Source: Escherichia coli (GTDB lineage Bacteria; Pseudomonadota; Gammaproteobacteria; Enterobacterales; Enterobacteriaceae). From it: 64,000 bases of DNA. The notes beneath the pieces are model-generated. The model saw only the letters and a program-made list of their open reading frames with translations. It did no database searches and was not told the origin of the DNA. The translations under genes were made by a program, and so were the position numbers. The stretch is from the NCBI RefSeq assembly GCF_003790525.1, contig NZ_CP033635.1. One strand, written 5' to 3'. Of this stretch, positions 30,033 through 31,511 are shown piece after piece; within the stretch, counting starts at the first letter, position 1, and the number at the start of each line of letters is the position of its first letter.

Positions 30033-30199
30033 TTTCTACCTTTTCCTGTATGGTAGTAACTAATCATTACCACCTGTATGGCATATAGTCAATATAGTAT
30101 CAATATCAACATGGTTCACAGGGTAAGTAAGACTTGATCTTACCCAGCAATAGTGGACACGCGGCTAAGTGAGTAAACTCTCAGTCAGAGGTGACTCAC

Positions 30200-30498
30200 A
30201 TGACAAAAACAGTATCAACCAGTAAAAACCCCGTAAACAGCATTCGCCTGAATTTCTCAGTGAAGCCCTGAAACTTGCTGAACGCATCGGTGTTGCTGCC
30301 GCAGCCCGTGAACTCAGCCTGTATGAATCACAGCTCTATGCGTGGCGCAGCAAACTGCAGCAACAAATGAGTTCGTCAGAGCGTGAAAGTGAACTGGCCG
30401 CTGAAAATGCCTGCCTGAAGCGGCAACTGGCGGAGCAGGCAGAGGAACTGGCTATCCTCCAAAAGGCCGCGACATACTTTGCGAATCGTCTGAAATGA
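30200..30498 (+). pseudogene. insE: IS3 orfA, apparently frameshifted
   Basis: From ATG 30200 the frame stops after 23 codons (MTKTVSTSKNPVNSIRLNFSVKP*); the OrfA-like body (KPRKQHSPEF...ATYFANRLK*) is in another frame; an A-run is one base shorter than expected. Confidence 0.55.
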
Positions 30499-31361
30499 AG
30501 TATGTCTTTATTGAAAAACATCAGGCTGAGTTCAGCATCAAAGCAATGTGCCGCGTGCTCCGGGTGGCCCGCAGCGGCTGGTATACGTGGTGTCAGCGGC
30601 GGACAAGGATAAGCACGCGTCAGCAGTTCCGCCAACACTGCGACAGCGTTGTCCTCGCGGCTTTTACCCGGTCAAAACAGCGTTACGGTGCCCCACGCCT
30701 GACGGATGAACTGCGTGCTCAGGGTTACCCCTTTAACGTAAAAACCGTGGCGGCAAGCCTGCGCCGTCAGGGACTGAGGGCAAAGGCCTCCCGGAAGTTC
30801 AGCCCGGTCAGCTACCGCGCACACGGCCTGCCTGTGTCAGAAAATCTGTTGGAGCAGGATTTTTACGCCAGTGGCCCGAACCAGAAGTGGGCAGGAGACA
30901 TCACGTACTTACGTACAGATGAAGGCTGGCTGTATCTGGCAGTGGTCATTGACCTGTGGTCACGTGCCGTTATTGGCTGGTCAATGTCGCCACGCATGAC
31001 GGCGCAACTGGCCTGCGATGCCCTGCAGATGGCGCTGTGGCGGCGTAAGAGGCCCCGGAACGTTATCGTTCACACGGACCGTGGAGGCCAGTACTGTTCA
31101 GCAGATTATCAGGCGCAACTGAAGCGGCATAATCTGCGTGGAAGTATGAGCGCAAAAGGTTGCTGCTACGATAATGCCTGCGTGGAAAGCTTCTTTCATT
31201 CGCTGAAAGTGGAATGTATCCATGGAGAACACTTTATCAGCCGGGAAATAATGCGGGCAACGGTGTTTAATTATATCGAATGTGATTACAATCGGTGGCG
31301 GCGGCACAGTTGGTGTGGCGGCCTCAGTCCGGAACAATTTGAAAACAAGAACCTCGCTTAG
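30495..31361 (+). CDS. insF: IS3 transposase OrfB (DDE)
   Basis: 288 aa; ...[64 protein letters not shown]. Confidence 0.85.
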
Positions 31362-31511
31362 GCCTGTGTCCATATTACGTGGGTAGGATCACATAACCTG
31401 AAATGGCACTAATGGCCAGAGCTTACTAATACATAATCCCTACAGGATGTAGCCACCAGTTTTGTTCATCCGGTATTCTGATTTGGTAACATGCTCCAGA
31501 AAGGAAGAAAT

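Follow-up and report, generated by a model that had tools for sequence, protein, structure and literature searches.

The 64,000-nucleotide window of Escherichia coli DNA analysed in our study contains a single IS3 element, 1257 bp long, at positions 30135-31391 on the plus strand; it starts with TGATC and ends with GATCA. To its left lies a gene for a thymidylate synthase (TS) homologue (29052-30032, minus strand; partial match to Pfam PF00303, 5.3e-25), translationally coupled to a gene for an aGPT-Pplase3/amino-acid:DNA-transferase (ADDT) protein that follows it (28111-29055, minus strand; PF18746, 4.8e-90, and also PF18724). Phage thymidine hypermodification is known to involve enzymes of the TS type and of the aGPT-Pplase/ADDT type (PMC8989533). 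PADLOC models gave no match to either protein. To its right lies a gene for a dGTPase-family HD phosphohydrolase (31512-32744, plus strand; PADLOC dGTPase, 2e-109; Pfam HD and HD_assoc). An anti-phage dGTPase family has been described (bioRxiv 10.1101/2021.04.26.441389), and by its profile matches the right neighbour would be a member of this defence-type family. The start codons of the two genes are 102 nt (ATG at 30032) and 120 nt (ATG at 31512) away from the element, as the preliminary description of this DNA had estimated (about 100 and 120 bp).

Both units belong to a larger chromosomal island. Our window is colinear with that of strain W2-5 (NZ_CP032989.1, 865884-929883, reverse strand), except for one 1-nt indel in ~51000-52000. 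A MazG-like gene (26293-26559, minus strand) and an XRE-M78 regulator (27026-28108, plus strand; PADLOC PD-Lambda-2_B, 8.7e-30) adjoin the TS/ADDT pair. An ORF of 108 aa with a TTG start (26703-27029, plus strand), unannotated in the RefSeq record of W2-5, overlaps the start of the regulator by 4 nt; neither its product nor the MazG-like protein had matches in Pfam or PADLOC. To the left of this block, a type I restriction-modification locus (hsdR, hsdM and hsdS) occupies ~16990-24871 (minus strand) together with a hypothetical gene and one for an AAA ATPase. To the right of the dGTPase gene, at ~33087-43300, a truncated papA, papB and papI are cut by an ISCR2 fragment, after which come floR, tet(A)/tetR, aph(6)-Id, aph(3'')-Ib and sul2; this is a resistance module inserted into a fimbrial remnant.

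The identification of the element as IS3, already proposed in the preliminary description, is borne out by its alignment with K-12 IS3B and by its 39-nt inverted repeats. The left repeat (IRL, 30135-30173, plus strand) opens with 5'-TG and the right one (IRR, 31353-31391, plus strand) closes with CA-3'; both are the same as in K-12, and together they form an imperfect pair, 72% complementary over 39 nt. Overall identity to K-12 IS3B is 96.0%, reaching 100% in the last ~900 nt, which begin at IS position 361 and include all of orfB; the first 120 nt are those of K-12 IS3, an A run excepted, and the sole difference in length is one A missing at 30224-30228. The element shares with K-12 IS3 (insE/insF; IS3 family, IS3 group) its length class, inverted repeats and orfB, the last of which (30495-31361, plus strand) is intact and encodes 288 aa, identical to the K-12 protein and with Pfam matches to rve (5.1e-28), rve_2 (4.8e-22) and HTH_21, that is, with a DDE/rve catalytic domain. 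The ATGA overlap of orfA and orfB and the frameshift region that surrounds it are also K-12 sequence. This includes the A-AAG motif region at 30461-30465 (plus strand), which we take to be the IS3 programmed -1 frameshift site of Sekine and Ohtsubo and which shows no change from K-12 (alignment columns 330-400 are identical). An Rfam scan of 29900-31700 for a frameshift pseudoknot family returned nothing at the gathering threshold.

The first reading frame of the element is interrupted. It was expected from the letters alone that orfA would stop after 23 codons because an A run is one base short, and both the K-12 alignment and the translation agree with this, with the single correction that the frame starts at the ATG at 30200 and not at ~30201. 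The truncated orfA (30200-30271, plus strand) ends at a TGA at 30269-30271, and its product reads MTKTVSTSKNPVNSIRLNFSVKP. The lesion (30224-30228, plus strand) is a run of five A residues (A5), compared with six (A6) in K-12 IS3, and it falls at codons 9-10. The rest of orfA (30272-30498, plus strand) is out of frame with the ATG at 30200, and the first start codon in its frame, the ATG at 30367, yields just a 43-aa C-terminal piece. When the missing A was restored in silico, an open 99-aa OrfA was obtained, with HTH_Tnp_1 at residues 12-78 (Pfam). The one-base deletion stops OrfA before the whole HTH domain, so that the entire DNA-binding part of OrfA is lost and the fusion with it, and neither OrfA nor OrfAB would be made; OrfAB is needed for the transposition of IS3-family elements (PMC11708052). 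The copy would consequently be non-autonomous, in line with the inactive copy suggested in the preliminary description. With intact inverted repeats, an intact orfB and the frameshift region of K-12, it could in principle be mobilised by a transposase supplied in trans, and it may also act as a substrate for homologous recombination. Taken together, TG...CA inverted repeats, nucleotide identity to the reference and an OrfB with a DDE domain are present, while an intact orfA for the OrfAB fusion and a 3-bp target duplication are lacking; judged by its sequence, the element is an IS3 by descent, but a defective copy of it. Such a defective copy is ordinary and already annotated, as an identical copy carries the RefSeq label "IS3 family transposase, frameshifted".

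Within orfA, windowed identities and a plasmid search delimited a divergent patch of ~240 nt (30257-30494, plus strand; IS positions ~121-360). The core of this patch has ~78% identity to K-12 IS3, and the patch has 93-97% identity to IS3H of the Shigella sonnei plasmid pSS_046 (RefSeq 'IS3-like element IS3H family transposase'), whose protein is like our repaired OrfA in the C-terminal half. In the plasmid search with orfA, the best matches were 97.9% (the allele of strain UPEC_U013, described below) and 96.6% (IS3H). Unlike the window copy, IS3H has an intact orfA, and it differs from K-12 by ~3-8% per 60-nt block outside the patch, whereas the window copy does not, tracking K-12 IS3 rather than IS3H in these parts. 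The patch leaves the reading frame open, which indicates that it arose by recombination between two functional IS3 relatives; the element is thus read as an IS3/IS3H recombinant, that is, a mosaic.

A sibling allele of the mosaic IS3, 99.3% identical to the window copy, was found in UPEC_U013 (locus 3746-5000), in CH4804 (3001-4257) and on plasmid p537-20_1 (1501-2755). Its changes are concentrated at the start of orfA (ATG to AAG, A5 to A4, A to T, and A6C4 to A7C1), with a net change of -3 nt, and an ORF can still be read through from a GTG at IS position 57. We considered that this allele could be a simple further decay of the window type, which is ruled out by that net change and by the ORF remaining open from the GTG. 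In RefSeq, the copy on p537-20_1 has a protein accession, and the chromosomal copies are called frameshifted.

The element is flanked by ACT on the left and CAT on the right, so there is no 3-bp target duplication, in contrast to K-12 IS3B, which lies between ATC and ATC and also has the full A6 and no divergent patch in orfA. The absence of the duplication is attributed to a secondary rearrangement and not to the element standing outside IS3. The occupied site reads ...ATGGTTCAC-AGGGTAAGTAAGACT-IS3-CATAACCTG..., where the 15 bp of AGGGTAAGTAAGACT (30120-30134) directly abut IRL; they are missing in strain EC2 and present in SCU-152, a strain with no IS3 at this place. In SCU-152 the TS flank passes through AAGGTAAGTAAGACT and goes on as TGACGTTCTT..., which leads to the hsdS/M/R genes of a type I restriction-modification locus; this native continuation is known from that one genome, at ~1.7% divergence. 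The type I locus of SCU-152 is on the opposite side of the TS operon from that of our window, which means that the order of the blocks differs between strains. On the other side of the element, the dGTPase-side flank (31392-31511, plus strand) consists of the 120 nt that are left of a native intergenic region of 403 nt separating the dGTPase gene from a divergent cdiB, and 45 genomes carry the uninterrupted sequence ...GGCAA/CATAACC... across the insertion point (here and below, a slash marks a junction). Since the TS flank natively continues into something other than the dGTPase gene (SCU-152) and the dGTPase flank natively continues towards cdiB (45 genomes), the two units must have been brought together at IS3. 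The preliminary description was silent on the missing duplication, on the 15 bp of TS-side flank lacking in EC2 and on the IS3H-like patch of orfA.

With 500-nt flanks on each side, the TS-IS3-dGTPase arrangement was found in 186 of the 5,426 complete E. coli genomes (~3%), and 368 genomes carry either flank. Strain I3 (NZ_CP195969.1, 3142357-3145927) has the locus with an additional IS1203-family insertion, so that its match comes in two pieces with a span of 3571 bp. Each junction also occurs with another partner: in NIST0056 the left one (TS...AGACT/IS3) has a cdiA-CT fragment on its other side, and in UPEC_U013 the right one (IS3/CATAACC-dGTPase) has IS1. In CH4804, this IS1/IS3 junction is joined to AAA'-hsdS-hsdM-hsdR-cdiI-cdiA-cdiB.

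It has been reported that a missing target duplication usually reflects recombination between IS copies or a deletion adjacent to the IS (PMC11708052). The exchange of partners at shared junctions and the absence of the duplication point to one of these two processes at our locus, where IS3 is thus seen as a deletion or recombination joint of two formerly separate gene blocks. The left junction falls in DNA that is natively upstream of the TS-like operon, and the right one falls 120 nt before the dGTPase start, in what is natively the region between cdiB and the dGTPase gene. The intervening DNA would have been lost through IS3 x IS3 recombination or an IS3-adjacent deletion, and the resulting arrangement has been passed on unchanged in ~3% of complete E. 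coli genomes. We consider it very probable, in sum, that an old rearrangement within a variable E. coli island left its joint here, occupied by a fossil, non-autonomous IS3/IS3H mosaic. This locus resembles the IS150 joints of the LTEE (PMC11708052) in having a single IS without target duplication between segments that are non-contiguous elsewhere, and in the combination of one unchanging junction with different partners across the IS. It differs from them in that the event appears ancient and fixed in a lineage, with an IS that is now defective, and in that its intermediates were not seen in 5,426 genomes. The reciprocal, or intermediate, junctions were defined as GGATCA/ACTTGACGTTC and GGCAACAT/TGATCTTACC; neither the IS3 right end followed by ACT and the SCU-152 flank (IS3/ACT-TGACG...) nor the 1410D004 flank followed by CAT and the IS3 left end (...GGCAACAT/IS3) was present in any of the 5,426 complete E. 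coli genomes.

The preliminary description had suggested that IS3 may silence or drive either flanking unit. A promoter-like site for the TS-like operon (30063-30092, minus strand; TTGACT, an 18-nt spacer and AATGAT) lies outside the IS, within the 102 nt of native upstream DNA that this operon retains, and is also found in the IS-free SCU-152. A second TS promoter-like site of SCU-152 is situated beyond the junction and would be lost in the window arrangement. For the dGTPase gene, a consensus promoter scan of the occupied and the native IS-free contexts found no plus-strand site. Proximal upstream DNA is retained by both flanking units. IS3 and the dGTPase gene point in the same direction, no terminator-like sites were found in 29950-31600, and two outward promoter motifs at the right end of IS3 (31266-31340, plus strand; TTTAAT/TACAAT at 31266-31292 and TTGGTG/CAATTT at 31310-31340, the slash here separating the two hexamers) point at the dGTPase gene. 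Motifs of this kind have been published as weak outward promoters of the IS3 right end (PMC12095673, citing Charlier et al. 1982). Co-orientation, the outward motifs and the lack of a predicted terminator after orfB suggest that IS3 may add transcription into the dGTPase gene.

From these observations it could be argued that the fossil IS3 has been retained for the promoter or regulatory input that it would give to a dGTPase gene whose distal native upstream DNA was lost, an explanation that gains from the orientation of the element, from the lack of a terminator-like site between it and the gene, from its outward promoter motifs (PMC12095673), and from the conservation of the arrangement in 186 genomes with an intact dGTPase gene. 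We regard it as unlikely. The last 50 bp of IS3 are reported to repress the expression driven by its right end, which rises ~1.9-fold in their absence, and a polymerase pause site is the probable cause (PMC12095673); the dGTPase gene still has 120 nt of native upstream DNA; EC2 has lost its IS3, albeit with a frameshifted dGTPase gene; and clonal inheritance alone can explain the conservation. A broader version of the idea, of which we are more doubtful, would have the dead IS3 co-opted, with the dGTPase gene relying on right-end promoters or read-through after the loss of ~280 of the 403 nt, and with the block of nucleotide-pool and DNA-modification defence made by the joint (MazG-like, XRE-M78, TS-like/ADDT and dGTPase) being selected as a unit.

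The account of the preliminary description is that IS3 inserted into a regulatory region shared by the TS-like and dGTPase units. Under this account IS3 would have transposed into a pre-existing divergent intergenic region, and the comparison with genomes lacking IS3 that had been recommended does provide one case that fits on its face: among the 368 flank-bearing genomes, EC2 alone has the two flanks joined, with the units adjacent and without IS3, and could be taken for the ancestral empty site. The same comparison also provides SCU-152 and the 45 cdiB genomes, in which the TS flank and the dGTPase flank, respectively, have native continuations of their own, the dGTPase gene having a different native upstream region in the latter. 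The EC2 junction itself (locus 8370-8395) reads ...ATGGTTCAC/ATAACCTG..., so that with respect to the occupied site 1272 bp are missing, namely IS3 plus the 15 bp that are native TS flank in SCU-152, exactly between two TCAC repeats, the second of which is made up of the last three bases of IS3 and the first base of the flank. Furthermore, the flanks of EC2 differ from those of the IS3-bearing S1-IND-01-B at 1 and 8 positions per 3 kb, and those of IS-free relatives differ from EC2 at ~50 per 3 kb. The 15 native bp, the TCAC bounds and the S1-IND-01-B-like flanks speak against EC2 as an ancestral empty site, and together with the missing target duplication and the native continuations of both flanks they make insertion into a shared region very improbable. 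In the annotation of EC2 the dGTPase gene is frameshifted. The strain is best explained by a secondary loss of IS3 through TCAC microhomology. The loss of IS elements between microhomologies of 2-4 bp is known for other elements (bioRxiv 10.1101/2023.06.07.543989), and EC2 is like the losses of the ISApl1/Tn6330 and IEE type in that a near-IS-length segment (1272 vs 1257 bp) bounded by a 4-bp TCAC is gone; the likeness to ISApl1/Tn6330 concerns EC2 and not the window copy.

Returning to the reading of a defective element at an old joint, the frameshift on which the defect depends is a genuine and stable inherited allele. Copies identical to ours, with A5, are present in W2-5 and H9Ecoli, and A5 is kept in S1-IND-01-B and NIST0056 along with 6 and 3 other SNPs, respectively; as these diverged copies keep A5, the deletion must be older than their divergence. 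The preliminary description raised the concern of a homopolymer sequencing error; the lesion is indeed a single base in an A run, and homopolymers are often miscalled in some long-read assemblies. That the short A run is a sequencing or assembly error in a really intact and active IS3 is nevertheless scarcely credible. Many independent complete assemblies, produced in different laboratories, share the A5 allele at this locus, in some cases within copies 3-6 other SNPs apart, and an A6 version of this orfA was absent from the 5,426 complete E. coli genomes (top match 99.7%) and, by an exact-pattern scan accepting A5 or A6, from a set of one genome per species from 100,044 species.

The main value of these results lies in correct annotation, with little beyond it. 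A single IS without a target duplication is to be read as the scar of a recombination or deletion and not as a fresh insertion, and here the scar would join two modules of an island of defence, virulence and resistance genes. The case also shows that an IS labelled 'frameshifted' need not be an error of assembly and may be an allele that is stably inherited. If it were true that the right end of IS3 drives the dGTPase gene, the locus would add to the examples of defence genes for which an IS serves as a mobile promoter.
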